64,000 nt of DNA from Candidatus Zixiibacteriota bacterium (GTDB lineage Bacteria > Zixibacteria > MSB-5A5 > GN15 > JAAZOE01), in contig JBDREQ010000039.1 of assembly GCA_043819555.1 (NCBI GenBank), positions 37,828 to 101,827 of the forward strand, in the 5' to 3' direction. A program made the translations under genes and the position numbers. The notes under the pieces are model-generated. The model was not told where the DNA came from, searched no databases, and saw only the letters and a program-made list of their open reading frames with translations. This document shows, in pieces, positions 21,717 through 59,576 of this stretch. Position 1 is the stretch's first letter. The number at the start of each line of letters is the position of its first letter.

Positions 21717-21775
21717 AATCTTTATAAATTTGTATGGATGGTGCCCAACGGGCTCCAGCCAAATTAATATTTCTG

Positions 21776-21853: not shown

Positions 21854-21887
21854 TCGTATAGAAATTTGATTTAAGAATCACCACCGA

Positions 21888-36199: not shown

Positions 36200-37702
36200 C
36201 TATTGCAAAGCTATAACTGCCTGATTCCTGGAAAAATCCCACAGCGACCTGATTTTTAAATCCAATAAGGCTACTTGATAATTTATCAGGGCCGAGATTT
36301 CATTGAGCTGTTCTCGTGATAATTGGGTTTGATAGAATTCTATATCTTTGGAAGATAAATCTCCGTTACGATACCTTTCGAGATTTATCTCGTATGTCCG
36401 CCGCGCGTTTATCACATTCTTTTCGGCGATTTCGATTTGCGTTTTTTGGTTTAAGAGATTGCGGCAGGCCTGGCGGATCTGATATTTAACCTGCTTTTGT
36501 TCCTCATCGGCCGATATCCGCTCCTGTTCAACCCGTTTCCGGGACGATTCAATCTGATGCTTCTTCTTGCCCCAGTCAAATAAAGGAATATTAAGCTTTA
36601 TCTCTACCATTTGATTGCGAGTCGGCGATCGATAAATATCTCCGAATAGACTATCAGTGCCGACGATGCCATAGGTCAAATCCACACTGGCCAAAAATTC
36701 ATTTTCCGAACCGGCTCGAATCAAATCATCCAAAGCATATTGAATATCAATATCCCTCTGGCGCAATTCCATACGATTCTGGAGGCCATGGTTCATAGCC
36801 TGCATTAGATTAATATCAACCACGTTCTTTTCCACATTGGTCACAACCTGCAAATCGTCATCAAGAGACAACCCCAGAAGAATCTTGAAATTATCGAGAG
36901 AATTCTCAAATTGTATTTGGCTGTTTTCGAGCGAAGCCCGGCTATTAGCCTGAGTCAAATCAGCCTGAAATAATTCTTCCTCAGCCGATATACCCGCTTC
37001 TACTTTGCTTCTGATTATTTCATAGCTTTCGGTCGCATTGGCCAATTCTTCTTTAGATATTTCAACGCTTCTCTGCCTGAAATAAAGACTTAGAAATTCC
37101 TGCGTGACCTGGCGCTCAATCTGCAGACGTTGGATAGCGAAGTTCAATTGCGCGTTTTCCAGCGCCAACTCGAGTTCTTTAATCCGCATTTGTGTGCGAT
37201 TGTAGGTAAATAAAGGCTGGTTAAGACTTAAATAAAGCGAATTCCTATACGATTTGTCTTTTTCTGTGCCGACTAATGAACTTGACGATTCCCGCCAGTC
37301 GAAATCCTCTACGATTCGCAAAGTACCATCGGTCCATTTGATTGGTTGCAGGATTGAAAGGCTGGCCGCAGAACTGGTCTGTTCTATGGTATAGTATTCT
37401 GAAAAGCGATCATCAAAAACTCTGTCTTTTGAAAATCTAAAAGGAGTCACAGTTAAATTAAACTGGGATTTCAATGAAGCCTGCTGCGCCCATAGATTTC
37501 TCTCGCTCATCTCCAGATTCAAACGGGTATTTCGAATCGTGGGGCTGTTGGTCATAGCCATATCCAGAGCCTGCTCCAAAGTCATATCAATCGCCGCCAC
37601 CGGGCTGGATAATCCCAATTGAGATAAGATTGCTATCAGGAGAATAACCGTAATTTGATTAATCTTTTTGACAGAAATCCATGTTATCACTCTTTTCATC
37701 AT
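36200..37702 (-). CDS. TolC-family outer membrane efflux protein
   Basis: MTLEQALDMAM..NSP, LNQPLF, LNIPLFDWG, ERYRNG repeats. Confidence 0.92.
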   Translation of the reverse strand: MMKRVITWISVKKINQITVILLIAILSQLGLSSPVAAIDMTLEQALDMAMTNSPTIRNTRLNLEMSERNLWAQQASLKSQFNLTVTPFRFSKDRVFDDRFSEYYTIEQTSSAASLSILQPIKWTDGTLRIVEDFDWRESSSSLVGTEKDKSYRNSLYLSLNQPLFTYNRTQMRIKELELALENAQLNFAIQRLQIERQVTQEFLSLYFRQRSVEISKEELANATESYEIIRSKVEAGISAEEELFQADLTQANSRASLENSQIQFENSLDNFKILLGLSLDDDLQVVTNVEKNVVDINLMQAMNHGLQNRMELRQRDIDIQYALDDLIRAGSENEFLASVDLTYGIVGTDSLFGDIYRSPTRNQMVEIKLNIPLFDWGKKKHQIESSRKRVEQERISADEEQKQVKYQIRQACRNLLNQKTQIEIAEKNVINARRTYEINLERYRNGDLSSKDIEFYQTQLSREQLNEISALINYQVALLDLKIRSLWDFSRNQAVIALQ

Positions 37703-37740: not shown

Positions 37741-40700
37741 TTAGCGCTTGACCCATTTGATCGCGTCGGCGGTAACAACCTGAGTCCGGTTTTTATCGGT
37801 CATCTCAATTTTATTGGAACCGCTTGGCAGGCGAAATGTCCCCAAATAATTCCAGCCTTCTTCGGCGTCATCAAGGTCAAGAAGGATTTCCTCGACACCA
37901 TCCTCATGATATACAAAAAACTGCTTCTCGCCCATGTCCTGATTTCTATTCCCGCCCCGGTGTCTCCACCAGTTCTCATAGCTTTCATCCTCAAAATAAA
38001 AATAGACATCAAAATCACCGGATGCTTCCAGATTAATTTCCCAGGCAATTTTATTTTCTCCGGTGCCGGATTTCTTGTGCATGGCTGACTTAATGAATTT
38101 GCCGTGAAATTTCTGTCCTGTCGTCGGGAGCCAGACACCCGGCGCATCCCAGGAACGTATCCCGACATAGGGATCTTCAATCTCGCCAATGTCAAAATAT
38201 TCGCGTAGATTTCGCCTCAGCCAGTTTTCTGGAATAATACCTATAATAGTAAAGCCGGGGTCCTCGTTATCAACAAGATATTCTCCAGACGAATCATTTT
38301 TATTATCCGCGAAAGCCGCTAAGGAATCCATTTCAACCGGAGTTTCTTTGCGTCGCATCTGTTGATCTCGAAATTGATGGTTTAAAATTGCCGGAATATT
38401 CTGGGAAACATAAGTATCAATAGTCATTGAAGACGGGGGCTGGTCGATAATAAATCCAATCTCGCGCCGCTTTTGAGCTGGGACATAGTACATTTTTGAA
38501 TAATCGTATTGTTGCTGCATTCTCTCCCACCGGGGACCAAAATTCGCTTCCTGGCGCTGATAGCGCAGACTAATCTTTATCAGACCATCAACATCAGTAG
38601 GATTTGTAACCTTAAATTTCACCTGTGTTTTGGTTCGTTCATCATGAATGATATTATAGCTTTCTATATCTTCAAAAATATAACCGGCTAGAGCCGTATC
38701 TCCGTACCAGACATCTATATCGGATGCAAATTCCGGGCTTCCAACTCTCGAAGCGAAGGCCAATATTGTCGAATCTGTGATATTTTGAAAGCTGTTGGTC
38801 TTAATGAAATCGTTTATCTCGCCTGTAAATTCTTCGTTTCCCGATCTGGCTTCAAGAATAGAAATAAGGCTTAATCCTTTCGATTTTACAGCGGCCTGCA
38901 CCGTTTCGTCCTTTACCGCTGAAGTATTAATAATTTCCTTTAAGGGAAATTGCTTCAACGCCAGATTGGCTCGTTCCTGTTCCGTGAGGCCAGCGTCAAA
39001 CCACATCGAAATTTGTGGAGGAGGTTTTATGCGGCTTTCAAAATAAGACTCGAAGGCATAATTTAAAAACGGCCAATTTTCAGAATTAATATTCGTGACA
39101 TATGAAACAAAATTGGGCAGAATCTTGAAACGTATTTCGACATTCTCATGCCGAGTCAAACCCCGCATATCTTCATTGAACCCCATAAGATCAATTTTGG
39201 CAAAATAGCCTAAATAGGTGGCTTGAAGAACTTTGGGATCCTCCAATTGATTAGCCCGTTCCTGCGACCAGTTAGAGCTTCTCTCAAATCTCCTGAAATC
39301 ACATCCGGAATTGGCGGTACCCATTTCAGTTAAATACACAATTTGAGGTTGAACCGTTTCCTGAGCTATTGTCCAGTAGCGGTTATATGCATAAAATTGA
39401 ATCGGAGCTTCGACTAAACTGAATTTGTCATAGGGATATTCCAGTCCAAGGTTTACTTCATACTCATTTTTTAAATCAATTATGACCGTCCCAATAGTGT
39501 CACCCAACTCATTAAAATATTCTAAATAATAATCGTGGCCGGGGAATGTATATAAAGAATATTCTACATCCTCCGCGGTGAGGAAATGACGTTCATATTC
39601 TCCGATCGTTAACGACATTTGGGGAAGAAATTTCTCAGGAGCAAACGAGTATTCGATTTGACCGTTTTTCTCTATAGTTGAGACTTTCCCCTGAGAGATG
39701 GCTGTCAATCCGGGAGGAGCCGAGACGGTTAGACTAAATTTAGTAAATTCTCGGGCGGGCGAGTCAGGAAAGGCCGTTCCCGGCTGTAGCCCAGCATTGG
39801 GATACCATCCGCTTTCCGGAGTCAAATGCAGATACCTATCGGCCACGAAGGAATAGATTTTGGGAATTCGAAATATCCACAGGCTGTATTCGGATTCAAG
39901 TTTGTCATTGGGCAAATCGAGATAACAATAACGATCATCAATCGACCCCGAATACTCTATTATCATTGAAAGAGTATCGTTCATGGCGACAGGATTTTGA
40001 GGTTTAATCCAGATTAAAAACCTGTTCTGTGAAAACTCAATCACTTCTCCGGAAATTGATATTGAAGAAACTTTCAATCCCGGGTTTAGCGAAAATAACA
40101 ATGAATCAAGGCTGGATTCATTATTATTGACAACGCTCAAAGTTGAACGTCCCGATAAAACGCCGCCCTGCCAATCAATTTCAAGAGAATTTTCCAGAAT
40201 ATTAACGGTCGGTGTATTGGGAGCGCTTTGGGCCAGTGATTTCAGGTCTTGTCGGTAATCCCTATCCTGATAATTTGAATTCAGGTATGTCATCCCAAGT
40301 AAAACAGATGAGACTAAACAGACAATCGAAATCACGGAAGCGGCAACATTGGCAACTCTCGATTGTTTTAATCTTTTGGTCGTAAATACTGAAATGAAAA
40401 ACATCCCCAAACCGAGAATGAAATAGGCCCCTCTCAGCAGAAAAACATCGGACCAGTTGCCCAGGCCGACAAAGCCCGAGAATATAAGAGGCTGATATAA
40501 CATATAGGCATCAAAAATGAAATAAAAATGCCGTCCCAGATAAATCAGTGATAATAAAGAAAATCCAAGCATGGCAACAAAGACAACGGCCTGGCTGCGA
40601 AACAGCGTTACCAGTAAAACCGATCCCCCGATTACAAACGTCAGAGTCGGCAAACTTACCAAAAGAGGAAACCATAAATAAGGTTCCCATGCAAATGCTG

Positions 40701-41115
40701 AGGGCGATAAAAAGGCATCGAATATCAAAGTCATAAGAATCAGAACCGCATTCAGAGCGAGGAAAACGCCCAGTATACCCAGAAACTTCCCAAGGAGATA
40801 ATCGATATTTGAAAACGAGCGGGTAAAAATGACTTGCGACGTATCATGATTTTTGTCGCGCTTTAAAAACTCGGTTGCCATAAAGGCCGCGATTATACCC
40901 TGATATATATTGAGCATTTTCAGATTGGCCAATAAAAGAGAACCGCCCAGGGCACGCATGTAGTGAGGCGCCCCGCCGATTTTGGTGCCCATTCCCATGC
41001 ACATCCCAAATAATATGGCAATGCCCAAAATGGAAAAGATTCGGAATGCCCATGACCGTAACAGGAGCTTGGCTTCATACCAGGCGACACTTTTTATGGC
41101 ATAGAGATTCAGCAT
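37741..41115 (-). CDS. ABC-2 permease fused to an M1-aminopeptidase-like periplasmic region (no HExxH) and a golvesin/CBM-like C-terminal domain
   Basis: About 7 TMs with EFLKRDK...YLLGK; M1-like LFSLNPGLKV, ESGWYP, GLEYPY..FSLVEAP; C-terminal VDNEDPGF...GWNYLGTF...ADAIKW. Confidence 0.75.
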   Translation of the reverse strand: MLNLYAIKSVAWYEAKLLLRSWAFRIFSILGIAILFGMCMGMGTKIGGAPHYMRALGGSLLLANLKMLNIYQGIIAAFMATEFLKRDKNHDTSQVIFTRSFSNIDYLLGKFLGILGVFLALNAVLILMTLIFDAFLSPSAFAWEPYLWFPLLVSLPTLTFVIGGSVLLVTLFRSQAVVFVAMLGFSLLSLIYLGRHFYFIFDAYMLYQPLIFSGFVGLGNWSDVFLLRGAYFILGLGMFFISVFTTKRLKQSRVANVAASVISIVCLVSSVLLGMTYLNSNYQDRDYRQDLKSLAQSAPNTPTVNILENSLEIDWQGGVLSGRSTLSVVNNNESSLDSLLFSLNPGLKVSSISISGEVIEFSQNRFLIWIKPQNPVAMNDTLSMIIEYSGSIDDRYCYLDLPNDKLESEYSLWIFRIPKIYSFVADRYLHLTPESGWYPNAGLQPGTAFPDSPAREFTKFSLTVSAPPGLTAISQGKVSTIEKNGQIEYSFAPEKFLPQMSLTIGEYERHFLTAEDVEYSLYTFPGHDYYLEYFNELGDTIGTVIIDLKNEYEVNLGLEYPYDKFSLVEAPIQFYAYNRYWTIAQETVQPQIVYLTEMGTANSGCDFRRFERSSNWSQERANQLEDPKVLQATYLGYFAKIDLMGFNEDMRGLTRHENVEIRFKILPNFVSYVTNINSENWPFLNYAFESYFESRIKPPPQISMWFDAGLTEQERANLALKQFPLKEIINTSAVKDETVQAAVKSKGLSLISILEARSGNEEFTGEINDFIKTNSFQNITDSTILAFASRVGSPEFASDIDVWYGDTALAGYIFEDIESYNIIHDERTKTQVKFKVTNPTDVDGLIKISLRYQRQEANFGPRWERMQQQYDYSKMYYVPAQKRREIGFIIDQPPSSMTIDTYVSQNIPAILNHQFRDQQMRRKETPVEMDSLAAFADNKNDSSGEYLVDNEDPGFTIIGIIPENWLRRNLREYFDIGEIEDPYVGIRSWDAPGVWLPTTGQKFHGKFIKSAMHKKSGTGENKIAWEINLEASGDFDVYFYFEDESYENWWRHRGGNRNQDMGEKQFFVYHEDGVEEILLDLDDAEEGWNYLGTFRLPSGSNKIEMTDKNRTQVVTADAIKWVKR

Positions 41116-41130
41116 GCAATTGTTCTCCGA

Positions 41131-42042
41131 TTACCAGCCATTATCCGAAGCTTCCAGATCCATTTCAAATCCGCTGGTTTGCATGAAATAAATATAAGCA
41201 TCTTCAAGATTGGGCTCAAGTGGCTCGGCATCTTTCCCCGTTACTTCTTCCGCAACCAAACGAAGCTCATAACCGTGCTCAGCCGGCATAGCAGAAATGA
41301 CGGGGTATTTTTCCTTAAACCTGTCAATTTCCCCGCCATCGACATACACCCGCCAGACTTTTCCTTTAGTCTTATTTATCAATCCATCCGGAGAGCCATT
41401 ATAGATTATTCTCCCCGAGCTAAGAAGAGCCATATCATGGCATGTGGATGATATATCCCCGACTATATGAGTTGATAAGACAATAATTATATCCCGGGTG
41501 GCCAAATCAGCCATCAAATTTCGAAATCTCAGCCGTTCCTGAGGGTCAAGGCCGACGGTCGGTTCATCGACGATTAAAATCTGCGGATCGCCAATAAGGG
41601 TTTGGGCAATTCCCAATCGTCTTTTCATCCCGCCTGACAACTTGTTTGCGTTGCGGTCGCGGACATCAAAGAGGCCGACCTCATCCAGCAGTTTATCGAC
41701 TTTTTCAAGGCGTTTTTTCTTATCTTTCACGCCGCTCATTTGGGCGGCATAATCAAGAAATTCCCATACTGCAGTTTTGGCAAAGGTACTGAAGCCCTGA
41801 GGCAAATAGCCAATCAAACGGCGAATTTCACGGCGTTGTTTCTGTAAATCCATATCATTTATTTTAATCTGGCCCTGAGTCGGTTTTAGAAGCGTAACCA
41901 GGATACTCATTAAAGTCGTTTTGCCGGCTCCATTGGGGCCCAGAAGTCCGAATAAACCATTCTCAATTGTCAAGCCAACGTCGCGAAGAGCCAATTTGCC
42001 GCCGGGGTATTGTTTGGTAAGGTTATTTATTCGTATTTCCAT
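41131..42042 (-). CDS. ABC transporter ATP-binding protein (DrrA/CcmA-like), first gene of the RND-ABC operon
   Basis: GPNGAGKTT, LSGGMKRR, IVDEPT, STH. Confidence 0.95.
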   Translation of the reverse strand: MEIRINNLTKQYPGGKLALRDVGLTIENGLFGLLGPNGAGKTTLMSILVTLLKPTQGQIKINDMDLQKQRREIRRLIGYLPQGFSTFAKTAVWEFLDYAAQMSGVKDKKKRLEKVDKLLDEVGLFDVRDRNANKLSGGMKRRLGIAQTLIGDPQILIVDEPTVGLDPQERLRFRNLMADLATRDIIIVLSTHIVGDISSTCHDMALLSSGRIIYNGSPDGLINKTKGKVWRVYVDGGEIDRFKEKYPVISAMPAEHGYELRLVAEEVTGKDAEPLEPNLEDAYIYFMQTSGFEMDLEASDNGW

Positions 42043-42341: not shown

Positions 42342-43040
42342 TTAATCACTCACAATTAAGCGAAATCCTTTACCGTGAATTCCCCTTATTTCAATCCTGG
42401 GATCACCTTTGAGGTATTTTCGTAATTTTGATATAAACACGTCCATACTGCGACCGCTGAAGTAATTTTCGCTGCCCCAGATTTTCTTCAAAGCTTCATT
42501 TCGATCAAGGGTTTTATTGAGATTAATGCAGAGCAGTCGTAATAAATCGGCTTCCTTGGGCGTTAGTTTTCTTTCATTATTATCATTGACTAACAAGCTC
42601 CGATTATAATCGAATGTAAAAATGCCGATTTTAAAATTAACTTGTAAATTGTCACTTTCGTTCTGTGCGTTAACTCGTTTTAAAATCGCTCGAATTCGTA
42701 AGAGCAATTCTTCAATACTGAACGGTTTTGTTATATAATCGTCGCATCCTATTCCAAATCCCCTTATTTTATCCTCGGTCAGCGATTTGGCTGTTAGAAA
42801 AATAAGGGGGATGTCTTGATCCATGTCGCGAACTTTGCGAGCGAATGTAAACCCATCCATTTTGGGCATCATTACGTCAACCAAACATAGATCATAAGAG
42901 TTATTTGAAAAAAGGTCCCAGCCTTCCGAGCCATTTACGCATAGGATAACTCCAAAACCCTGCATTTGCAGATGTTCCCTGAGTATTAACCCAAAATTGG
43001 CATCATCTTCCAGAAGAAGAATTTCAGTTTTCTGATTCAT
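42342..43040 (-). CDS. OmpR/PhoB-family response regulator (RprY-like)
   Basis: LLEDD, DVMMP, DDYITKPF, winged helix RSMDVFISKLRK...HGKGF. Confidence 0.95.
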   Translation of the reverse strand: MNQKTEILLLEDDANFGLILREHLQMQGFGVILCVNGSEGWDLFSNNSYDLCLVDVMMPKMDGFTFARKVRDMDQDIPLIFLTAKSLTEDKIRGFGIGCDDYITKPFSIEELLLRIRAILKRVNAQNESDNLQVNFKIGIFTFDYNRSLLVNDNNERKLTPKEADLLRLLCINLNKTLDRNEALKKIWGSENYFSGRSMDVFISKLRKYLKGDPRIEIRGIHGKGFRLIVSD

Positions 43041-43043: not shown

Positions 43044-44759
43044 TTACGCCTCTGTGTCAATCGTTGGAAATACCAGATAGACCTCCGTACCTTTATTGAG
43101 TTCGCTTTTTATTTCAACTGTACCGTTCATCGCCTCGGTCATTAATTTAACATAACTCAATCCAAGGCCAAACCCTTTGACGTCATGCACGTCCCCGGAC
43201 GGAACCCGGAAATACTTGTCAAAAACCAGATCAATATCGGACTTTCCGATTCCCTGACCCTTGTCTGAAACGATAATTACAATATAGTTTTTTCTATTGT
43301 GGGTCGAAATGCATATTTCAGGGGCGGCTTTGGAATACTTGCAGGAATTATCCAATAAATTTCTGATGATGCCTGTAAGATGAATTGGATCGGCGGCGAC
43401 AAAAAATTTATTAGCCGCGAGTGAAGTTTCGATTATCCCGTTCTTGTGCTCAATGCGCAATACTTCCCGATTTACTTCGGACTTAATAATCTCATGGACG
43501 CTCACATCCTCTGAATTGAGTTCAACTTCACTCTCTTCCAATACCGCCATTTGCAAAATCTTCTCGGTCTGGCTGCTCATCCGTTGGTTTTCGCTTTGAA
43601 TCATCCGGCTGTATTGCAGTACTTTTTCCTTTTGGTCAATTATATCCGGTCTGATAATGGCTTCGCAGGCCAATTTCACAGTTGAAATTGGCGTTTTGAA
43701 TTCGTGGGTCATATTATTAATAAAATCCACCATCAGCGTTGAAAATCTTTTCTGGTGAATAATCGTTCGAATTGTGTACGCAAAACAGCCGATTATGATT
43801 AGCATAAAGGCAAAGGTCAGGAAAAAGATGGGACCGGTTTGCCACCATAAAAAGGCTCTTTGACCGGGGAAATATAATCGCAATTCGTTTCCGGACCTAA
43901 GAGGCGCTATTGGAAAAAGTTGCGACCGGAAATTGGTATTCAGTATACCGTTCTCATGTTCTTCGGATTTCAGCATGACCAACGAATCGCCCCGAGGATC
44001 AAAAATCCCAAAAGAGTATTCTAGATCAATATCGTATTCCCTCAAACTCTGAGAAATCAGAGAATCCAAAAGTCTGGGATTGGGCAAATCCAATTTACCG
44101 CTTCCGTCACCGGCCATAAATTCCCGAATAATATTTATAAAAATTGGATCCTGATCCGAATCGGCAACATCATCCCGGGATATTCCACCCATGACTCCAT
44201 CAGACCACTGTAGTGTAGCCGAACCGCTATCGGTTGTGATCTTAACCAGGAACCGCCCCGGGTCAAGGAGATGGTCTTCTAAATTTAATCTATGTTCGCC
44301 CTCCTGCAAAAACGTATCGACGACTATCTGATCTATGCCTTCATCAAGATTATAACTATATATTGTCATGCGCTGAGGGAAACGAGCGGGATAACTTAAC
44401 ACTCCATCTTCGATTCGATATAGATCAAGATCATTTACTGAATCGGTATTGTATCTTTCGGCCCTGACAAATGTTTTTTGGGCTATCCGATCTTCATTTA
44501 AACTGTCAGTTATTATAGACTCAACCTGAATGCATAATGAATCATCTTTGGGTATGCTAAAAAAGGTAAAATCAATTAATTCGTTGGTGATTAATTTTTG
44601 TGTCGTCAGAGCCATCGAAGCATTAACGTTGCGTCGAAAAGCCTGCTCTTTGAGATCAATGGCATAGTTGAGCAGCATTATTTGCAGGATTACCAATCCT
44701 GACAATGCGAACACAATCAACCCAATGATTAAGCCGACAGTTTTATTGGACAGCCTCAT
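43044..44759 (-). CDS. Sensor histidine kinase (two TMs, periplasmic sensor)
   Basis: NNMTHEFKTP, NLLDNSCKY, DKGQG, FDKYFR, GFGLGL. Confidence 0.95.
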   Translation of the reverse strand: MRLSNKTVGLIIGLIVFALSGLVILQIMLLNYAIDLKEQAFRRNVNASMALTTQKLITNELIDFTFFSIPKDDSLCIQVESIITDSLNEDRIAQKTFVRAERYNTDSVNDLDLYRIEDGVLSYPARFPQRMTIYSYNLDEGIDQIVVDTFLQEGEHRLNLEDHLLDPGRFLVKITTDSGSATLQWSDGVMGGISRDDVADSDQDPIFINIIREFMAGDGSGKLDLPNPRLLDSLISQSLREYDIDLEYSFGIFDPRGDSLVMLKSEEHENGILNTNFRSQLFPIAPLRSGNELRLYFPGQRAFLWWQTGPIFFLTFAFMLIIIGCFAYTIRTIIHQKRFSTLMVDFINNMTHEFKTPISTVKLACEAIIRPDIIDQKEKVLQYSRMIQSENQRMSSQTEKILQMAVLEESEVELNSEDVSVHEIIKSEVNREVLRIEHKNGIIETSLAANKFFVAADPIHLTGIIRNLLDNSCKYSKAAPEICISTHNRKNYIVIIVSDKGQGIGKSDIDLVFDKYFRVPSGDVHDVKGFGLGLSYVKLMTEAMNGTVEIKSELNKGTEVYLVFPTIDTEA

Positions 44760-44896: not shown

Positions 44897-45646
44897 ATGC
44901 GACAGACTAAAGTATTTTTCACAATGTTAATGATACTGGGAGCGACAATATTAATGCATGGAATGACTCCCGCCCAGCAAATGATGAAAATTGACTTAGG
45001 CGATGGGGAAGTATTTTTTCTACAGGATATTGGCTGTCTGATAAAAATGGATGGTGAACAACTGGTCGTTGATTTTGTGATGCCGGCCGATACCCGCTCA
45101 AAGGAATATCGGGAACTTGACTTCCAAAAAGGCGATGTAGTCGCCATGATGAACGGCAAAGGCTTAAAAAGTATAAAAGATATTGAAGAAAAATACGCCA
45201 GCATTGCCGAAGGGGAACCGGTCAAAATGGGAATCAAACGGGGTCGGGACATGATGATGATGGCATTTGATAAGCCGGCCGCCGGATCCGTTCAGCCGGG
45301 GCAAAAAATTATAATAGCGACTCCGGGTGATGCTACTGAAGGGAGTTCAGGATTTCCCCTAATGGGGCTGGGAATTTTCATAGATGAGGCAAAAGACAAG
45401 GTGGTCGTATCCGATGTTATGTACGAAGTTCCGGCGTTAGAAGAGGGATTGAATTTTGAAAAGGACGATATCATCACGGAAATGAACGGGGCTCCCGTTA
45501 CTTCGGCAAAAAACTTATTTGAAGAATATCAAAACCTTAAGCCCGGAGATAAAACTGCTTTCGAGGGCGTGCGGGCAGATAAACCATTTTCAATTACTTT
45601 TGAAAAGCCGGAGATTAAAGCTCGATCAGTGATTAAAGAAAATTAA
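44897..45646 (+). CDS. Exported tandem-PDZ-domain protein
   Basis: Signal peptide; two PDZ-like units (FQKGDVVAMMNGK and FEKDDIITEMNGAPV, GLGI); GGAGG RBS. Confidence 0.8.
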   Translation: MRQTKVFFTMLMILGATILMHGMTPAQQMMKIDLGDGEVFFLQDIGCLIKMDGEQLVVDFVMPADTRSKEYRELDFQKGDVVAMMNGKGLKSIKDIEEKYASIAEGEPVKMGIKRGRDMMMMAFDKPAAGSVQPGQKIIIATPGDATEGSSGFPLMGLGIFIDEAKDKVVVSDVMYEVPALEEGLNFEKDDIITEMNGAPVTSAKNLFEEYQNLKPGDKTAFEGVRADKPFSITFEKPEIKARSVIKEN

Positions 45647-45657: not shown

Positions 45658-47160
45658 ATGATAATTACCACTCGCTATTTATTTTTTGGCATTATCTGCT
45701 TGTTATTGATGAGTTCAATTGTATCGGGGCAGGCTTATAATCCATTTAATCAACGCGATGACAGGTACCGTCTTTTGGGGCTCAAACGAGCCAAAGAAGC
45801 CCATGATGCCGCCCGCGCTGAGTTTAACCGACAACAGGAATTGTTTAATCGTGACTTGATTTCAAATCAGGAGCTGGAACGCGCCCGATCGTTTTATTCC
45901 GATGCCGAAGTCAACTATCATCAATCGCTTCTCGCGGTGCTTTTTGAGGAACAATATGTGACCGTCTCAAAGGCGATTAAATACCAGAACGCGAACGATG
46001 AAAAAAGAGCGCGTTTGACACTCACTAATCCCTCGGGAGGAAGCGCCGAATTTCAGAAATTGCTCGAAATCGAAGATGAATTATTCCGTTCGCTGCAACC
46101 CGATGTGATTAATAACGTATACGTCTCTCTTCTCAACGATGAAAACGCAATCATCAGCCAGCCGTATGAGATAAAAATTCCCGTTTTGCGATACGGCGAA
46201 CCTGTCGAAATTGATTTTGAATTATTGCAGGACCTTGACGCCGTCAAAGTCTTCATCATTTACAGCAACGGTTCACAGCGCGAGATGAAAATCTTTTTGC
46301 AAAAGGATGTTACAGTAAACAGAGTCGCGGTTCAGTCGGAGCAGTTTTCACAGGAGGTTGAACTTGGCAGCTCCGCCGCCTTTGATTTGAATCTGGAGCT
46401 ATACAGTAGTTCTGAAAACACATTCAGCCTTGAAGTAGTCAATCTCCCCCGCCAAATCGGACGCGTATTCAAAGATAGATCCGGCCAGGCGAGATTGAGC
46501 CAGGTGAAATTCACGCAGTCATCACGCAGTAAACAAGCTTCTTTGGAGATTACTTTGCCGGATCGACCCACGGATGAAGTGAAAATGGATGAACCGATCA
46601 GTTTTTTTGTCCTTGTCCTCCCCCGCGATAAAATGAGTGAAATACCCGACTTATCCACTCGGCAATGGACACTGGAAGCGATCAATAATCTTGATATCGG
46701 ATTCGTTCGACTGGAATTAGTACCCCGTGGTAAAGGTAGACTTTTAGTCAGGGCTCCGCAACTTTACCATGCCATTATGCCCGATGAGTCGGTAGATATG
46801 TACATCGACGTAATCAATGAAGGCAGCCGTCATTTGGATAATATCCGCATCGAAACCGATATGCCGCTCAATTGGACAAAGAATATTCAGCCGCCTTTAA
46901 TTGAATCATTAGAAATAGATGAAGAAAGACGCATTCGTTTGATATTCACCCCATCGCCCGACGCGTCATCCGGAAAATATGAGGTGCGGGTAAAAACCAG
47001 CGGCATGTCTGACAATCAGCCGGTAACAAGCGACGATAAAACCGTTTCCGTCGAGATTAAATCTGAAACAAATATCATCGGTATCGCCATACTAATGATT
47101 CTTGTCGTTGGCTTGGTGGGCGGAATAGTGTTTTATGGGGTCCGTCTGTCTCGCAAATAA
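45658..47160 (+). CDS. Exported, C-terminally anchored protein with MFP-like alpha-hairpin and NEW3/NPCBM-associated Ig-like domain
   Basis: Signal peptide; EFNRQQELFNRDLISNQELERA; NEGS..LDNI..PLNW...SGKYEV; C-terminal TM followed by RLSRK. Confidence 0.7.
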   Translation: MIITTRYLFFGIICLLLMSSIVSGQAYNPFNQRDDRYRLLGLKRAKEAHDAARAEFNRQQELFNRDLISNQELERARSFYSDAEVNYHQSLLAVLFEEQYVTVSKAIKYQNANDEKRARLTLTNPSGGSAEFQKLLEIEDELFRSLQPDVINNVYVSLLNDENAIISQPYEIKIPVLRYGEPVEIDFELLQDLDAVKVFIIYSNGSQREMKIFLQKDVTVNRVAVQSEQFSQEVELGSSAAFDLNLELYSSSENTFSLEVVNLPRQIGRVFKDRSGQARLSQVKFTQSSRSKQASLEITLPDRPTDEVKMDEPISFFVLVLPRDKMSEIPDLSTRQWTLEAINNLDIGFVRLELVPRGKGRLLVRAPQLYHAIMPDESVDMYIDVINEGSRHLDNIRIETDMPLNWTKNIQPPLIESLEIDEERRIRLIFTPSPDASSGKYEVRVKTSGMSDNQPVTSDDKTVSVEIKSETNIIGIAILMILVVGLVGGIVFYGVRLSRK

Positions 47161-47183: not shown

Positions 47184-47945
47184 ATGAGTGAAATTGGCGC
47201 CGCGAAACAGAAGCCGCGACTGCAAGCGGTTAATTTGACTAAACGATACGAAGATGGAGTGCTGGCTCTGGATCATATAAATTTCTCGGTTTATCCCGGA
47301 CAAATCTTTGTTATGCTCGGAGGCAATGGAGCAGGCAAAACGACAGCAATAAATTTATTTTTTAATTTCATAGAACCGACCGAGGGGGAAGCTTTGGTTG
47401 ATGGAATTGCGTCGCATAAGAATCCTCTTGAGGTTAAGAATTTAATGTCCTTCGTTTCTGAAAACGTCATGCTGTACAGCAATTTTACGGCTCTGCAAAA
47501 CCTTGATTTCTTTGCCAAACTGGGTGGCAAAAACAAATATACCAGCGATGATTACTCAAAAGTTTTACTCCGGGTCGGCCTGGAAGAAGAGGTTCATACC
47601 AAGCGATTGCGCGGATATTCAAAAGGGATGAGACAAAAGTGCGGCATTGCCATCGCAATTCTCAAAGGCGCCCCGATTATTCTTTTGGATGAGCCAACTT
47701 CGGGTTTGGATCCCAAAGCCGGATTCGATTTTATCCGCCTGCTCTGTGAACTCCGCGACGAGGGCAAATCAATTCTGATGTCCACTCATGATATATTTCG
47801 CGCCCGGGAAGTAGCCGATACTATCGCCATAATGAAAGACGGACAGATTATCATGCAAAAGCCTGCGGCTGAATTGGCCGGGCAGGATTTAGAAAATGTC
47901 TATATGCGGTACATGGCCGGACATGAAAACTCGGTGACGACCTGA
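47184..47945 (+). CDS. ABC transporter ATP-binding protein
   Basis: GGNGAGKTT, YSKGMRQK signature, LLDEPTSGLDP, STHD. Confidence 0.95.
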   Translation: MSEIGAAKQKPRLQAVNLTKRYEDGVLALDHINFSVYPGQIFVMLGGNGAGKTTAINLFFNFIEPTEGEALVDGIASHKNPLEVKNLMSFVSENVMLYSNFTALQNLDFFAKLGGKNKYTSDDYSKVLLRVGLEEEVHTKRLRGYSKGMRQKCGIAIAILKGAPIILLDEPTSGLDPKAGFDFIRLLCELRDEGKSILMSTHDIFRAREVADTIAIMKDGQIIMQKPAAELAGQDLENVYMRYMAGHENSVTT

Positions 47946-47959: not shown

Positions 47960-49375
47960 ATGCTAAAAGTAATTATTGAAAAAGAGATTCGCGACATTAC
48001 CGGGTCGTTAAAGTTCGTCATTTCTTTCACCGTCTGCGCCGTTTTAATTCTGCTTTCATTCTATGTCGGGGCAAGCAACTATAAAATCAGCATGGGACAG
48101 TACGAGGCGGCCAAAGCGGAAAACATTCGGCAAATGGAGGGCCTCACCGAATGGTATTCGATTCAACAGCATCGCGCTTTTCTCCCCCCTAATCCCCTGG
48201 CATCGCTGGTCAGCGGTGTATCCAATGATATCGGGCGCACAATCGAAGTAAATCATCGCGGCGAATTAATCGCCCAGGATAGCAAATTCAATGAGGAACC
48301 GATTTACGCTGTCTTTCAATTTGTTGATTTGAGTTTTATCTTTGGCGTTGTGATTTCATTGTTCGCTATTCTGCTGGGATATGATTCGATCTGCGGCGAA
48401 AAAGAACACGGCACTCTCCGCCTTTCATTCGCTAACGCTGTCCCGCGAGCGACTTATATTCTGGGGAAATTGATCGGCTCGTTTCTGACACTGACAATTT
48501 CACTGATTCTGGCCATCTTGATAGGCTGTCTCCTGTTACCGGCTTTGAATATTTCTTTAACGGGAGGTGAATGGATTCGATTAATGCTAATTATAGGTAC
48601 GGGTCTCCTTTATTTTGGCGTGTTTCTGACTTTATCGGTATTTATATCATCCTGTTGTCGGAGAACTTCATCATCATTTCTAATGCTGCTGGTCATTTGG
48701 GTTTTTAGCGTTCTCATTATACCGCGAGCCTCCGTTCTTATGGCCGGGAGAGCCGCCGATGTCCCTTCGGTTGATGAGTTGGCGGCCCAAAAGGCGAGCT
48801 TCGCCCGGCAAACCTGGAAGGAATTTAATTCGCAGCTTAGCGGATTCGCGACTGGCCCAACCGACGATATTGAACAGACAATGGATATTTTCCATCGCTA
48901 TATGGATTCGTTGACTGCAGAGAGAGACCGCAAAATTGATGAATTGGTCGATCGCCTCAATGAAACCCGCAGAAATAAACAAATCGAGCGGGAAAAGATT
49001 GCCTTCGCCATGGCAAAAATTTCTCCTTCGGCATCACTCTCTTTAGCCCTGTCCAATCTGGCCGGAACCTCATCGGAATTAAAGAACCGGTTTACGCAAA
49101 CAGCTCTGGATTACAGAAAAATATACAACGATTTTGTAAATAAAAAAACCGGCATGGTCGTCGGGGGACGGATGGTTATGATAAAAATTGGCGATGAAGA
49201 AGAGGAGGAACCCGAACCGATCAATCCCGCCGAACTTCCGGAATACAGATTTGATCCGATTCCGCTAAAAGAATCCATATCTGCGGCAATTGTCGATATC
49301 GGAATTTTATCACTATTTAATATTATTTTCTTTGTCGGCGCGTTTGTGTCATTTATTCGATATGACGTTCGTTAA
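47960..49375 (+). CDS. ABC-2-type permease with large periplasmic helical loops
   Basis: KEIRD, YDSICGEKEHGTLRL...GK; ends in RYDVR. Confidence 0.88.
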   Translation: MLKVIIEKEIRDITGSLKFVISFTVCAVLILLSFYVGASNYKISMGQYEAAKAENIRQMEGLTEWYSIQQHRAFLPPNPLASLVSGVSNDIGRTIEVNHRGELIAQDSKFNEEPIYAVFQFVDLSFIFGVVISLFAILLGYDSICGEKEHGTLRLSFANAVPRATYILGKLIGSFLTLTISLILAILIGCLLLPALNISLTGGEWIRLMLIIGTGLLYFGVFLTLSVFISSCCRRTSSSFLMLLVIWVFSVLIIPRASVLMAGRAADVPSVDELAAQKASFARQTWKEFNSQLSGFATGPTDDIEQTMDIFHRYMDSLTAERDRKIDELVDRLNETRRNKQIEREKIAFAMAKISPSASLSLALSNLAGTSSELKNRFTQTALDYRKIYNDFVNKKTGMVVGGRMVMIKIGDEEEEEPEPINPAELPEYRFDPIPLKESISAAIVDIGILSLFNIIFFVGAFVSFIRYDVR

Positions 49376-49395: not shown

Positions 49396-50841
49396 GTGCT
49401 GAAGCATTTGATACATAAAGAACTGAAGGCCATACTTTTAAGTCCCAAGTTTTTCACGACCTTTGGGATCTGTTCCCTGCTCCTTCTTATCAGCGTATTC
49501 ATCGGCATTAAAGAATATCAAACCCAGCTTAAGCAATACGAGACGAGTATTAATCTGGCCAATCAGGAAATTTCCGAAGAAACCAGCTGGTCCAATTTGG
49601 AACATAAGGTTCTGCGTAAGCCTGATCCTTTGCAGATTTTTGTCTCCGGATTAAGCAACGATATCGGACGGTGGTCTTTGATTTCTCCGGAAGTCTCCGT
49701 CAAATTAAAACACTCCATATATTCTGATGATCCCATCTTTGCCGTTTTTCGTTTTGTTGATTTCGCGTTTATCGTTCAGGTTATTTTGACTCTGTTTGCG
49801 ATTCTTTTTACATATGATGCCATATGCGGAGAACGCGAACAAGGCATGCTGCGATTGCTCTTTGCCAACGCGGTGAACCGATCACATTATATTGTTGCCA
49901 AGATAATCGGAGCCTGGTTGGGATTAGTCATACCACTTTTAATACCGACAATACTATGCCTACTCATTGTTATAATATTCCAGGTTCCGCTCACACCCGA
50001 ACATTGGACAAGACTTCTGGTGTTTCTGGGACTCTCCGGCCTGTTCTTTACTTTCTTCATCGTTTTTGGAGTCTTTATATCTTCATTGACTCGCCGTTCG
50101 AGTATTTCTTTTTTAATTTCTCTCATGCTCTGGGTTTTATTTGTTCTAATTATACCTCGAGCCGGCATCATTACGGCAGGCCAAATAGTGGAAGTGCCTC
50201 GCCTGGCGGAAATAGATGGTCAGCGTGATGCTTATGCCAGGGACAAATGGGACGAATTTTATAAAGGCATGGTACAGCGAACTCGCGATCTATACGCCGA
50301 AAATGGAGAACGGGATGAAATGGCCGAATGGCGCCATATGGAAGAAGAAGATTCACTGAGGAAAGAGGTGATAAAAGACATCGAAAATCACTACATCCGC
50401 CTAATGGATGAACTCAACCGACGCCAAACCATCCGTGAAAAACTGGCTCTCAATTTATCCCGTCTATCTCCGGTCTCGGCTTATCAACTGGCCGCTTCGG
50501 ATTTGGCGGGAACTGATATTGGCTTGAAAAATAGATATAATGAGTCCATGTCGCGGTATCGAGAATCATTTATTGAATATGTTAATAAAAAACAGAAGGA
50601 AAACGGCGGCGGCGTGGCGGGAATAAATATTATGATGTCCAGCGAAACAGGATTAAGCATTCAGGTACCTCAAGCCGACGACGTCCTTGATATCAGCGAT
50701 ATGCCAAAGTATTTTCCGGAAGAAGCCATTTATCGCGGCGGGCTGGAGAATATCGTCATCAATGCCGGAATAATCAGTCTTTACACAATTCTGGCTTTTG
50801 CCGGGGCATTTATCCGCATGCTGAAATATGATGTCAGGTAA
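49396..50841 (+). CDS. ABC-2-type permease, paralog of the preceding gene
   Basis: YDAICGEREQGMLRL; ends in KYDVR; collinear with 47960-49375. Confidence 0.88.
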   Translation: MLKHLIHKELKAILLSPKFFTTFGICSLLLLISVFIGIKEYQTQLKQYETSINLANQEISEETSWSNLEHKVLRKPDPLQIFVSGLSNDIGRWSLISPEVSVKLKHSIYSDDPIFAVFRFVDFAFIVQVILTLFAILFTYDAICGEREQGMLRLLFANAVNRSHYIVAKIIGAWLGLVIPLLIPTILCLLIVIIFQVPLTPEHWTRLLVFLGLSGLFFTFFIVFGVFISSLTRRSSISFLISLMLWVLFVLIIPRAGIITAGQIVEVPRLAEIDGQRDAYARDKWDEFYKGMVQRTRDLYAENGERDEMAEWRHMEEEDSLRKEVIKDIENHYIRLMDELNRRQTIREKLALNLSRLSPVSAYQLAASDLAGTDIGLKNRYNESMSRYRESFIEYVNKKQKENGGGVAGINIMMSSETGLSIQVPQADDVLDISDMPKYFPEEAIYRGGLENIVINAGIISLYTILAFAGAFIRMLKYDVR

Positions 50842-50846: not shown

Positions 50847-52205
50847 TTATGAAAATCTCAGTATGAAACGGGTCATTTGATTGGGAGTTGACTGAACCGA
50901 AATACTGCCTTGATGTAAACGCATGATTTGCCGGGATAGGCTAAGGCCAATACCGGAACCTTCCTTCTTTGTCGTAAAGAAAGGAGTGAACAATCGCTCC
51001 TTTATATCATCATCAAATCCGGGGCCATTATCCTCCACCGTGATAAGAACGCGCCCGCGATCATTCAATTTGACCTCTATCAGGATTATAGGATTATCCG
51101 TCCCCGAAAGCGCTTCAATCGCATTCAATAGCAAATTAATTATGACCTGTTCGATTAATTCATTGTCTGCAAATAATCGCAGATTATCGGGTTCAACGTT
51201 TAATTGAATTTCAATCCCTCCATGATCCAACTGACTCCTCATGAATTTAATGATTCCTTCAAGAAAAGATACCACTCTGAAGTTTACAAAATCCGGTTTG
51301 GGGATACGGGTCAGATTTCGATAGGCATCAACAAAATGCAATAATCCTCTGCTTCTTTTTTCGATCGTCGCGGCGGCCTGCCGAATATCTTTTCTGATAT
51401 CGAATGGTAATGCGGCGTTTTCTCCATCGTCCAATTCGGTTTCTTCTATTAATTCATGGACCGTGGAAGCCAATGACGCAATGGGTGTGATTGAATTCAT
51501 AATCTCATGCGTCAAGACTCTTATGAGTTTCTGCCAGGCCGCCATTTCCTGCTCAGCCAATTCACTTTCAATATTTTGCATTGAGATCAATTTAAGAAGT
51601 TTATCGCGCATTCTAAACTCGGTGCAATGAATTGCCAGAGTGATATTCTCCTCACCATCGTCAATCTTTATCAGAGCTTTTTCGCCTGTCCTGGAGTCAT
51701 TTAAAGCGCGTACCAATTCAGGCGAGAAATCATGCAATTTGTTAATGTTGCTTAAGTGATTTACGCGCAAAAGACTTTTGGCGGCCCTATTGATCAGATC
51801 TATACTGCCCTGCGCGTCGAAAGATAATATCCCCAATCCTATATGTTGTACCAAAGTCTGAAGATAGCGATATTGCTGTTCCTTTTCTGAGCGGTCTTCG
51901 CGAAATTGAGCTATGACCTCCGAAAAGGCTTTAGCCAGATTGTCATGAGACGGTCCGCGGCCACCGCCAGAAAAAGAACTCGAAAAATCGGAATATTTAA
52001 TTGATTCCAGAAAGCGGGTTAAATCCCGATTTGTTTTTTCCGCATAATAAATTAATGACACAATTTGACCAACGAGCAAACCGCTGACCATCACAATCAC
52101 CGCACCGGATTGTGACATGGTCAACAGGAAAATTAATAAGGAGATCGTGGCGGCCAGGAATATGACGCGAACAATTAACTGAATTCGAAATGATTTAAAT
52201 ATCAT
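50847..52205 (-). CDS. PAS-containing sensor histidine kinase (NtrY-like)
   Basis: RVLTHEIMNS, NLLLNAIEA, DNGPG, PFFTTK, GSGIGL. Confidence 0.93.
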   Translation of the reverse strand: MIFKSFRIQLIVRVIFLAATISLLIFLLTMSQSGAVIVMVSGLLVGQIVSLIYYAEKTNRDLTRFLESIKYSDFSSSFSGGGRGPSHDNLAKAFSEVIAQFREDRSEKEQQYRYLQTLVQHIGLGILSFDAQGSIDLINRAAKSLLRVNHLSNINKLHDFSPELVRALNDSRTGEKALIKIDDGEENITLAIHCTEFRMRDKLLKLISMQNIESELAEQEMAAWQKLIRVLTHEIMNSITPIASLASTVHELIEETELDDGENAALPFDIRKDIRQAAATIEKRSRGLLHFVDAYRNLTRIPKPDFVNFRVVSFLEGIIKFMRSQLDHGGIEIQLNVEPDNLRLFADNELIEQVIINLLLNAIEALSGTDNPIILIEVKLNDRGRVLITVEDNGPGFDDDIKERLFTPFFTTKKEGSGIGLSLSRQIMRLHQGSISVQSTPNQMTRFILRFS

Positions 52206-53570
52206 GCTTTTGCATTCTACGGTATAACGACGCCCGGGTCAATCCCAATTCTCTGGCCGCTTTTGACACATTGCCGCCATGTTTGGATAGAGCCATCTTG
52301 ATTACCTTTTGCTCAACATTATCCAGATTGTAGCTATCCAATGACAACCCGTTGCGACTTGTCTTTGATCCCGCAATCATAAAATCACCCGGCTTCAGAA
52401 CCGTGGAATCGCTCATTATAATAGCTCTTTCAATTATATGATCCAATTCGCGGATATTTCCCGGCCAATTGTGATGCTCCAGTTTTTTCAATGCTGTCGA
52501 AGAAATTTGAGTAATATCCTTCATGTATTTGCGGCTATAAATTCCCCAAAAGTGGTCGGCCAAAATCGGCAAATCGCCGGTACGCTCTCTCAAGGGAGGC
52601 AGCTTGATCTCCACTGTATTGATACGATATAATAAATCCTGCCGGAATTTATTTTCAGCGACCATGTCATAGATTGGAAGATTAGTAGCGCAAATCAGTC
52701 GAATGTCAATATCTATGGTCTTATTCGAGCCCACGCGATAAAGGGTCTATTATTCAGAGCTGTCAGAAGCTTTGGCTGAAGAGATAGCGGCAGATTCCCG
52801 ATCTCATCAAGGAATAGGGTCCCTCCCGAGGCGGTTTCGAACCGGCCAGCCCGATTGTCTCGAGCATCGGTAAAAGCGCCCCTGACATGCCCGAATAATT
52901 CGCTTTCGAATAAAGATTCCGGAATCGCTCCCATATCAGCCGAAATAAAAACAACATCGGAACGAGACGACCGGCGATGAATTTCACGGGCGACCAATTC
53001 TTTTCCGGTTCCGTTTTCGCCCAGTATTAATACATTGGCATCCGTGGCCGAAACCTTTTCGATGGCGTTAAATACTTCCTGCATCGCCTCCGACTCACCC
53101 AATATTCCTTTATACCGAAGGTCGAGCTGTCCCGAAAGCTGTCTTTCTCGATCTTTGAGAGTTTGGATTTCTTCATGCGAGCGATTCAAACGCATACCAG
53201 CCGATATCGTTGCCAGCAGTTTTTCATTTTGCCACGGCTTCAAAACAAAATCGGCGGCCCCTGCCTTTATCCCCTGAACGGCCATTTCAACGTCACCATA
53301 GGCGGTAATAAGAATAACAACAACCGATGGATCAATCTCCATTATTTTTTCCAGCCAGTAAAAACCCTCTTTTCCACTCGATACATCCTGATTAAAATTC
53401 ATATCAAGAAGAATTACATTGAAATCATTCTCGCTCATTAGATAAGGGATATTTTGGGGATTAGATTCAATTGTCACAGACGAGACATATTTCTTCAAAA
53501 GCAGCATAGCCGCCTGCAAAACATCTTCATCATCATCAACAATTAATATTCGCCCGATCTCTTGCGTCAT
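52195..53570 (-). pseudogene. Sigma54-dependent response regulator (REC-AAA-HTH) split by a 1-nt frameshift near 52745
   Basis: ORF 52713-53591 holds REC, GENGTGKE, GAFTDA and LFLDEIG; ORF 52195-52734 resumes at RVGSNK..IDIRLICATN..WPGNIREL..HTH. May be a sequencing error. Confidence 0.85.
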
Positions 53571-53765
53571 AAAACTATTCTTCCGTTTCATTTATAATAT
53601 TCCCATAATTTATACTTTGTTTTAGGAAACTGAAAGTTTAAATCACTTCAAAAAGGCCAAAAAATAAAATAAGTGTACGTTTTTGAACGTATTTAATCTC
53701 ATAAACGAACACATTGTCATTCTTGCAGTATATTTAAAATATTGTCATTTAATGTCTTAACTTCA

Positions 53766-55113: not shown

Positions 55114-55158
55114 CATAGATATAGAGCTGTCAAACCACAAATTTGACGACATTGGAAA

Positions 55159-55860
55159 TTGGAGAATAAAATGATTCGAACCAACAATTTAATGAAGGTC
55201 TATCGAACCGAAGAAATTGAGACAACAGCCCTCAATTCAATTAATATGGAGATCAAAGAAGGCGAATTTGTATCTATCATGGGGCCGTCAGGATGCGGCA
55301 AATCAACTCTATTAAATCTGCTGGGATTGCTCGACAATCCATCCGGCGGTGAATACTATTTTCTCGATGAAAAAGTATCACATTATAGCGAGCGTCAACG
55401 AGCCAGCCTGAGAAAAAAAAATATCGGATTTGTTTTCCAGAGTTTTAACCTCATTGATGAGTTAACCGTTTTTGAAAATGTGGAACTACCTCTTCTTTAC
55501 CTCGGAGTTTCTTCCGCAGAACGAAAAATGAGAGTTGAGGAGACTCTGGATCATATGCAAATTATCGCTCGAAAAAAGCATTTTCCTCAACAATTATCAG
55601 GCGGGCAGCAACAGCGTGTCGCCGTCGCTCGAGCTTTAGTGGCCAAACCAAAAATGATATTGGCGGATGAGCCAACCGGCAATCTCGATTCCGCGCATGG
55701 CGATGAAGTCATGGGACTTTTATCAGAACTCAATTCCAATGGCACAACGATAGTCATGGTGACTCATTCGCCAGCTTATGCCGAGTATGGTAATCGCATA
55801 ATTCACCTTTTTGACGGGCAGATTGTGACGGAAAATGTTCAGGAAAAATTCCGTGTATAG
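55159..55860 (+). CDS. MacB/LolD-family ABC ATPase
   Basis: [40 protein letters not shown]; start may be ATG at 55171. Confidence 0.95.
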
Positions 55861-59562: not shown

Positions 59563-59576
59563 TTTAATGAGATCCC

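Follow-up and report, generated by a model that had tools for sequence, protein, structure and literature searches.

A membrane-anchored NEW3 protein with an adaptor-type helical hairpin in a conserved ABC-2 transporter operon of Candidatus Zixiibacteriota

Introduction

The subject of this report is P1, a 500-aa bitopic protein encoded by an uninterrupted open reading frame (ORF; 45658..47160, plus strand) in DNA from a Candidatus Zixiibacteriota bacterium. The whole stretch of DNA that was analysed, called here the window, is 64,000 nt long, and coordinates refer to it unless another locus is named. P1 is the product of the second gene of a plus-strand operon whose order is PDZ protein, P1, ATP-binding cassette (ABC) ATPase and two ABC-2 permeases, with gaps of 11, 23, 14 and 20 bp between the genes. 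An earlier annotation made from the letters of the window (the original prediction) had described P1 as a non-canonical adaptor, in which a TolC-docking hairpin of the membrane fusion protein (MFP) type is mounted on a β-rich stalk. The analysis presented here finds such a hairpin, with a similarity specific to the hairpins of periplasmic adaptors, on a protein that is otherwise built of immunoglobulin (Ig)-like domains, and weighs what this hairpin may bind.

Architecture of P1

The N-terminus of P1 shows a basic n-region and a hydrophobic core, with small residues preceding Q25, and relatives terminate at this point in A-x-A/AQ. The signal peptide read from these features (residues 1-24, 45658..45729; plus strand, as for all parts of P1) has its probable cleavage site after VSG, and it reads as cleavable and without a lipobox cysteine. 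In an AlphaFold2 model built on a 27-sequence alignment (mean predicted local distance difference test score, pLDDT, 81.9) the signal peptide is followed by an α-helical hairpin (residues 35-97, 45760..45948), which is also recognised by profile matches. Its helices occupy residues 35-64 and 70-97 on either side of a turn at 65-69, and the pLDDT reaches 82-91 in 10-residue blocks over residues 41-90. Modelling of the protein alone, one of the checks proposed together with the original prediction, thus yields a helical hairpin. Beta strands then span residues 102-467 and form three β-sandwich domains. The first (residues 102-213, 45961..46296) is duplicated in the long-stalk relatives P0141 and P0147, the second (residues 222-322, 46321..46623) is defined by the model, and the third (residues 348-467, 46699..47058; pLDDT ~90) contains the sole Pfam match in P1, a NEW3 domain (PF10633) at residues 375-447 (E 8.9e-10, 39.1 bits against a cut-off of 24.4). 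The protein ends with a C-terminal transmembrane helix (residues 473-499, 47074..47154, helical in the model) followed by RLSRK; in relatives, this helix keeps a small-residue G/T/G pattern and the basic tail.

With its signal peptide, Ig-like domains, C-terminal transmembrane helix and adjoining ABC-2 transporter, P1 displays the complete NEW3/COG1470-type layout. A Foldseek search with the whole model was uninformative and returned generic tandem-Ig matches only (integrin- and pilin-like arrays, ciliary proteins).

A separate observation concerns the segment just ahead of the hairpin (residues 24-36, 45727-45765), which holds a motif, NPFNQRDD, that is near-invariant among close relatives, with N31, R33 and D34 invariant. 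The segment is poorly modelled (pLDDT <50), which suggests a candidate docking peptide for some partner; the motif is unconserved in the diverse family.

Similarity of the hairpin to adaptor hairpins

When P1 was compared with NCBIfam, all five matches were to adaptor families (CzcB, MdtN, RND_mfp, HlyD and EmrA; E 2.8e-4 to 9.6e-3) and all of them lay within residues 41-117. The scores are far under the cut-offs of these families (15-20 bits against 95-391), the best being 20.1 bits against 319.3 for TIGR00999, and 17.1 bits against 94.9 were obtained for TIGR01730. Alignment of the P1 family by hhalign with an adaptor encoded in the window (53851-55113) placed P1 residues 45-90 on adaptor residues 112-157 (probability 70.7, E 3.8e-5). 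The diverse P1 alignment gave a similar value (E 5.3e-5), and the alignments were restricted to P1 residues 39-94. The original prediction had noticed the resemblance to this real adaptor from the peptide NQNRDLKEKKLISDFEFKRA, which is indeed present, as residues 161-180 of the adaptor.

The same specificity was found in wider searches. When all PDB sequences were searched with a profile built from 112 diverse relatives (P1 identity 23-59%), the top match was the fused adaptor TriAB (6vej_P, E 3.3e-6), with both TriAB hairpins matched. Further matches, always at profile positions ~22-99, were to MexJ, two MacA, ZneB, 4l8j, MexA, AcrA and EmrA, and the remaining significant matches were NEW3-like domains of sialidases. 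A hidden Markov model (HMM) of the hairpin only, run against every ORF of at least 80 aa in the genome (E <= 0.01), gave ten matches, namely P1 and nine adaptor genes, and no other protein. In the reverse direction, an HMM of 11 adaptors of the genome matches the P1 ORF in 40 of 80 related loci at E <= 1e-5. Among 120 listed homologues, ten are annotated with PF25893, which we take to be an adaptor-hairpin family. As to labelling, one of the nine adaptor matches had been automatically named OEP, its ORF overlapping the neighbour by a few bases; it is actually the adaptor at C9:120445-121353.

The tip of the hairpin carries the sequence R58-x3-L62-x6-S69 (45829..45864), identified from the sequence, its conservation and the alignment with TriA of 6vej. 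The pattern is that of the RLS motif, which in MacA, AcrA and MexA lies at the tip of the hairpin and in which single changes reduce binding to TolC (PMC3391258). In P1, R58 and L62 are on helix 1 right ahead of the turn and S69, preceded by I68, opens helix 2, an arrangement that adaptors share. In 6vej, these three positions of the P1 profile fall on R..L......S of TriA. All three positions are well kept in 27 close relatives (alignment A1: R58 in 27, L/M62 in 27, S/T69 in 25, whole motif in 25) and in 26 operon-matched relatives (A4: 25, 26 and 26, whole motif in 25). Among the 112 diverse relatives (A5) the counts are 59 for R58, 103 for L/M62, 92 for S/T69 and 45 for the whole motif, and the arginine is the least constant of the three residues. 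The bare pattern R-x3-L-x6-S occurs 205 times in 777,975 residues of the genome's ORFs of at least 300 aa, or 0.13 times per 500 aa. It is because the motif sits at the modelled tip, is conserved and is accompanied by a profile similarity specific to adaptor hairpins that the resemblance of the hairpin stands above chance.

By profile comparison and structural model, then, the segment is a true MFP-type hairpin with an RLS tip, and it is the only MFP domain of the protein. Lipoyl, β-barrel and membrane-proximal adaptor domains were not detected in P1 with Pfam, NCBIfam or hhalign, the matches to adaptor families being confined to residues 41-117. Much of the original prediction is upheld by these data. 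The pattern that it gave, R-x3-L-x5-IS, is present as R58, L62, I68 and S69, and the conservation of R, L and S, on which it was made to depend, is evident in close relatives, although weaker for the arginine in the diverse set. The peptide that it quoted is found at residues 42-87, that is at 45781-45918, whereas the end coordinate attached to it, 45930, is 12 nt too far. Its statements that the remainder of the protein is β-rich and NEW3-like with a C-terminal anchor (strands 102-467, NEW3 above cut-off, helix 473-499), that lipoyl and β-barrel motifs are missing and that the topology is inverted, with the anchor at the end opposite to that of adaptors, agree with what was found. Missing from P1 are the lipoyl, β-barrel and membrane-proximal domains, a score above a curated cut-off and an N-terminal anchor, either helix or lipid. 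As four defining features of the periplasmic adaptor family are lacking, P1 should not be filed as a member of that family.

The operon and its distribution

The first gene of the operon (44897..45646, plus strand) encodes a secreted tandem-PDZ protein (Pfam PDZ_2, E 7.4e-17, two stretches) and is found ahead of P1 in most related loci. Downstream of P1, the ABC ATPase (47184..47945, plus strand; Pfam ABC_tran, E 1.3e-25) is DrrA/GldA-like by NCBIfam. The usual ABC signature is a motif of the LSGGQ type; read from the translation, the ATPase has YSKGM at this position, and its Walker A, Walker B and H-loop seem intact. The two permeases, A (47960..49375) and B (49396..50841), both on the plus strand, are paralogues with Pfam ABC2_membrane_2 and DUF3526 matches; permease A combines a NosY-like core with a periplasmic helical insertion, and permease B is the second permease in related loci. 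Divergently from the operon, and from the same intergenic region, are read the genes of a sensor histidine kinase (43044..44759, minus strand; Pfam HisKA and HATPase_c) and an OmpR-type response regulator (42342..43040, minus strand; Pfam Response_reg and Trans_reg_C).

Related loci were collected by a pattern scan of one genome per species, which gave 205 relatives, and the best 80 loci were kept; counts of loci given in this report refer to these 80. P1 is 57-67% identical across them, over several phyla, and the loci are assigned to Zixibacteria, Ignavibacteria, Bacteroidota, KSB1 and Calditrichota, with some evidently mislabelled bins (a few) among them. The complete order of PDZ protein, P1, ATPase, permease A and permease B is found in 55 of the 80, with contig ends cutting many others, so that the membership of P1 in an ABC-2 operon, as the original prediction had it, is supported. 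A kinase homologue is located upstream on the opposite strand in 69 loci, and the response regulator is 45-70% identical in related loci.

Within phyla the distribution of the module is patchy. Of the genomes sampled, it is carried by 46 of 151 in the window's phylum (27 of 88 genera) and by 31 of 121 in the phylum to which the genome with L057 belongs, one of these positives, G242, being flagged as unpublished. Full-length P1 is encoded by 49 of 401 in the phylum to which the genome with L026 belongs. Database searches with a limit of E <= 1e-3 returned 1167 P1 relatives, the best 120 having lengths of 483-525 aa. In an exhaustive search of representatives, the clusters numbered 1032 at this limit and 238 at E <= 1e-30. 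In the Atlas, a cluster of look-alikes is commonest in Aminicenantota, and one cluster member is named Handelsmanbacteria.

Several variants of the module were encountered. In long-stalk relatives (718 and 797 aa), additional copies of the first Ig domain come after the same hairpin at the N-terminus. Fusions of permease and P1, 892 and 924 aa in length, make up a cluster of two members. A second P1-like copy in genome G123 (locus L083) is arranged as permease, permease, P1-like protein and ATPase, without PDZ protein or regulators. The genome holding L046 (G004) contains two full-length copies of P1 (C135:18348-19805 and C106:57593-59071). A 741-aa relative, P0158, was considered as a fusion of PDZ protein and P1 and was rejected, its middle reading like an out-of-frame translation.

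Permeases and hairpin-less relatives

The AlphaFold2 model of permease A (pLDDT 80, predicted template modelling score 0.74) shows six membrane helices and, between transmembrane helices TM5 and TM6, a periplasmic insertion of four helices (residues 271-397), one of which is 49 residues long. In Foldseek, NosY chains of NosDFY ranked first (7znq_y and 7o0y_D; E 1e-4, TM-score by target 0.62-0.70), ahead of ABCG and ABCA transporters. The permeases belong to ABC2_membrane_2 and are not of the MacB/FtsX type.

A comparison with simpler systems was provided by eight genomes of the L026 phylum sample, which contain shorter NEW3 proteins that match just the last domain and the anchor of P1. In the four examined, the signal peptide leads directly into the β domain. 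The operon of these four relatives consists of the NEW3 protein, an ATPase and one compact permease, in which the ABC2_membrane_2 match runs unbroken (1-282 of 283). An accessory protein with a hairpin, the helical insertion of the permease and the duplication of the permease therefore occur together. This joint occurrence fits a periplasm-spanning elaboration of the transporter, and it fits equally a direct contact between hairpin and insertion.

TolC-family channels

With ~12 adaptor genes to seven TolC-family (OEP) genes, channels are normally shared in this genome. An orphan channel was considered as a candidate and set aside, since an adaptor gene is found no further than ~3.5 kb from each complete OEP gene. 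The OEP gene of the window (36200..37702, minus strand; Pfam OEP, E 1e-45) is part of an OEP-MFP-RND operon (37702 down to 32011) and is one candidate partner among the seven. Directly upstream of this operon and on its strand, 38 bp from the OEP gene, is a segment (37741-42042) with genes for an ABC ATPase (41131-42042) and for a multi-pass membrane protein of 1124 aa (37741-41115), in which a Golvesin_C domain (E 1.5e-12) and a stretch weakly resembling M1 peptidases were recognised. The arrangement of this ATPase, the 1124-aa protein and the OEP-MFP-RND operon recurs in L001 and L002.

The original prediction had named the TolC at 36200-37702 as the possible partner of P1. As a conserved partner it was not supported, since this gene is a member of an RND-MFP-OEP operon and its adjacency to the module was found in two of the 80 loci. 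A search of the available flanks of these loci with HMMs made from the OEPs of this genome detected a TolC-family gene near the module in four. Two (L001 and L002) have the arrangement of the window, in L079 the gene belongs to a separate RND operon and in L063 it is 8.6 kb away. Orthologues of the window's OEP (E <= 1e-60) are present in 12 of the 151 genomes of the phylum sample, seven with P1 and five without, and adjacency of this OEP and P1 is confined to the window's own family (G000, G073, G104 and G114).

A different picture came from the long-stalk relative P0141. A metagenome scan with this single protein gave two loci, L081 and L082, which represent one lineage. Their order is ATPase, P1-like protein (718 aa, P0141), OEP, LuxR-type gene, small ORF and two ABC-2 permeases, one of which has a DUF3526 match. 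The OEP is clear (Pfam E 1.2e-40, two repeats), and its ATG overlaps the TGA of the P1-like gene (ATGA); this start opens a signal peptide and a typical TolC N-terminus. At E <= 1e-4, the sole match of the adaptor HMM in these loci is the hairpin of the P1-like protein itself (E ~4e-7), and no canonical adaptor was found with this HMM within 10 kb. In L082, a sigma-54 response regulator and an ORF resembling a kinase (20090-21928, minus strand) come after the TolC-coupled cluster, as in the window, which may be a coincidence. Other searches for divergent P1 paralogues adjoining TolC genes yielded only the standard form in the phylum of G001, and only the standard form and hairpin-less relatives in the phylum of G003. 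The second copy in G123 (L083) has no TolC-family gene within ~9 kb. The proposed link to a TolC-family channel, and the co-occurrence of homologues with tolC that had been suggested as a check of it, are thus supported in part and indirectly: the genes are coupled in one distant lineage, but an OEP gene is rare near the module elsewhere.

Proposed mechanism and alternatives

At what we regard as an even chance, P1 would serve as an adaptor-like accessory subunit in an ABC-2 export machine under two-component control, and its hairpin would recruit a TolC-family channel that is shared. In such a machine, the C-terminal helix of P1 would be anchored in the inner membrane beside a heterodimer of the two NosY-like permeases, and the three Ig-like domains would serve as a stalk. 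At the far end of this stalk, the N-terminal hairpin would touch the periplasmic tip of the channel through the RLS motif, and in this genome the channel would be borrowed from another pump. Hydrolysis of ATP would move the long periplasmic helices of the permeases, so that a periplasmic or membrane-derived substrate could be expelled through the channel, and the tandem-PDZ protein may capture the substrate or serve as a scaffold. The presence of the PDZ protein together with a dedicated kinase and regulator suggests an inducible response to a peptide or envelope-derived ligand. We infer the binding of P1 to the permeases and to a TolC-family protein, as well as the stoichiometry, the direction of transport and the substrate.

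Several observations weigh against a TolC-docking role. A TolC-family gene was not found in the flanks of 76 of the 80 loci, an orthologue of the window's OEP, searched for at E <= 1e-60, was not found in 39 of the 46 genomes of the phylum sample that carry P1, and the coupling to a TolC gene rests on one verified lineage. The bare motif, expected 0.13 times per 500 aa, is weak evidence, and among the diverse relatives it is complete in just 45 of 112, with R58 in 59. The invariant residues of close relatives are located at the base of the hairpin (residues 37-46 and 82-99) and not at its tip, where the conservation of L62, G66, S69 and E72 could simply serve to build the turn. The length of the stalk varies, given the extra Ig repeats of the 718- and 797-aa relatives, and this fits ill with a fixed bridging distance. 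In known pumps the conduit is sealed by lipoyl, β-barrel and membrane-proximal domains, none of which P1 has. Further, the hairpin occurs together with the permease insertion and so might bind the insertion instead.

The last point leads to the alternative that survives best, although we consider it unlikely. The hairpin would dock on, or be gripped by, the periplasmic helices of the permeases, and the ABC motor would act as a mechanotransducer on P1, the PDZ protein or both, as NosFY does on NosD, without a TolC-family channel and without reaching the outer membrane. The NosY of NosDFY as the nearest fold of the permease core (Foldseek E 1e-4), the 49-residue periplasmic helix and three more between TM5 and TM6 of permease A, and the compact permease of all four hairpin-less relatives speak for this reading. 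So do the position of the most invariant hairpin residues at the base and the flanks of the 76 loci in which a TolC-family gene was not detected. Against such a contact speaks the profile of the hairpin, which is specifically adaptor-like down to its tip motif. The translational coupling of a P1-like gene to a TolC-family gene in L081 and L082 also argues against it, and the three-domain stalk between anchor and hairpin would need to fold back.

It is distinctly more doubtful that P1 is a generic NEW3/COG1470-type accessory subunit of an ABC-2 transporter, whose hairpin serves self-association or stability and resembles that of adaptors by common descent without a shared function. Hairpin-less relatives do occur in the same kind of operon, and some NEW3 clusters of the Atlas, a number of them commonest in Bacillota or Archaea, align just from residue ~82-115 on. 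The conserved tip residues may be turn-forming, and hairpin-bearing adaptors exist also in bacteria without TolC. However, the N-terminal hairpin is kept in diverse relatives, including the two long-stalk forms examined, and its bearers come from Zixibacteria, Ignavibacteria, Bacteroidota, KSB1, Calditrichota, Aminicenantota and Handelsmanbacteria, all of which are outer-membrane-bearing phyla; the TolC gene coupling in L081 and L082 also speaks against this reading. Finally, the tandem Ig-like domains with NEW3 and the integrin- and pilin-like arrays returned by Foldseek could recall an adhesin- or S-layer-like display protein exported or anchored by the ABC transporter, which is highly improbable for a protein that is fixed in the inner membrane by a C-terminal helix with a basic tail, is present in a single copy per operon and retains 57-67% identity across 80 loci of several phyla, unlike fast-evolving surface proteins, and we know of no ABC-2 permeases of this fold that act as protein exporters.

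Comparison with known systems

Among known systems, the closest to P1 are the ABC-driven tripartite pump MacA-MacB-TolC and periplasmic adaptors in general (AcrA, MexA, TriAB and HlyD). P1 shares with these adaptors the R-x3-L-x6-S tip on an α-hairpin, and the profiles cross-match; as in MacA-MacB-TolC, it is encoded beside an ABC transporter, with a TolC-family gene beside it in one distant lineage. In contrast to adaptors, it has three Ig-like domains in place of the lipoyl, β-barrel and membrane-proximal domains, and its anchor is a C-terminal transmembrane helix instead of an N-terminal helix or lipid. The transporter differs as well, being a NosY-like ABC-2 system and not a MacB-like one. 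E. coli YbhGFSR, likened here by description only, resembles the operon in having two paralogous ABC-2 permeases (YbhS and YbhR), an ATPase and an adaptor-type protein (YbhG). Unlike P1, YbhG is a canonical adaptor.

Two other kinds of system are related to parts of the operon. NosDFY(L) provides the best structural match to the permease core (7znq and 7o0y) and likewise has a periplasmic accessory protein in the operon. Unlike it, the five proteins of the P1 operon include no NosD-like β-helix partner or copper-chaperone domain, the permeases have an extra helical insertion of ~130 residues and a disordered linker, and a PDZ protein and a two-component system are present. The hairpin-less NEW3/COG1470 operons share with P1 the signal peptide, the Ig-like domains, NEW3 and the C-terminal anchor beside an ABC-2 transporter, but P1 has in addition the hairpin, and two long permeases take the place of one compact permease.

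To our knowledge, the adaptors of all tripartite pumps described belong to a single family and share a four-domain plan. It is proposed here, tentatively and a shade short of an even chance, that P1 represents a second, unrelated trans-envelope adaptor architecture, in which a modular Ig stalk of variable length, anchored by its C-terminus, bears a TolC-docking hairpin and joins a NosY-like ABC-2 motor, itself equipped with a periplasmic helical tower, to a channel of the TolC family. Should this be correct, an adaptor that retains only the hairpin would show which part suffices for channel recruitment, and a NosY-like ABC-2 motor would join the list of pump engines. Envelope-spanning pumps would then have been built at least twice from different parts, the hairpin being a portable TolC-docking module, and a function would be provided for a module found widely among uncultivated members of Zixibacteria, Ignavibacteria, Bacteroidota, KSB1 and Calditrichota. 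No report on the P1 family or its architecture was found in the literature searched, and the words Ig-like, ABC-2, YbhG and atypical do not occur in a 2026 review of adaptors.

Other genes of the window

Downstream of the operon, on the minus strand, a sigma-54-type response regulator (52195-53591) is split over two overlapping ORFs. The ORF at 52713-53591 contains the receiver and positions 1-122 of Sigma54_activat, and the ORF at 52195-52734 contains positions 125-167, the lid and HTH_8; the split reflects either a frameshift or an error in sequencing. On the same strand, the split regulator is followed by a gene for a histidine kinase (50847-52205). The adaptor with which the hairpin was compared is the second adaptor of the window (420 aa, HlyD_3, 53851-55113), and its gene is followed on the plus strand by one for a 233-aa ABC ATPase; this segment (53851-55860) is probably the start of a MacAB-like pump. 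Further on, the minus strand of 56737-61523 encodes two large proteins (941 and 648 aa) with multihaem cytochrome c7/c3 motifs and a cytochrome b561-like membrane domain.

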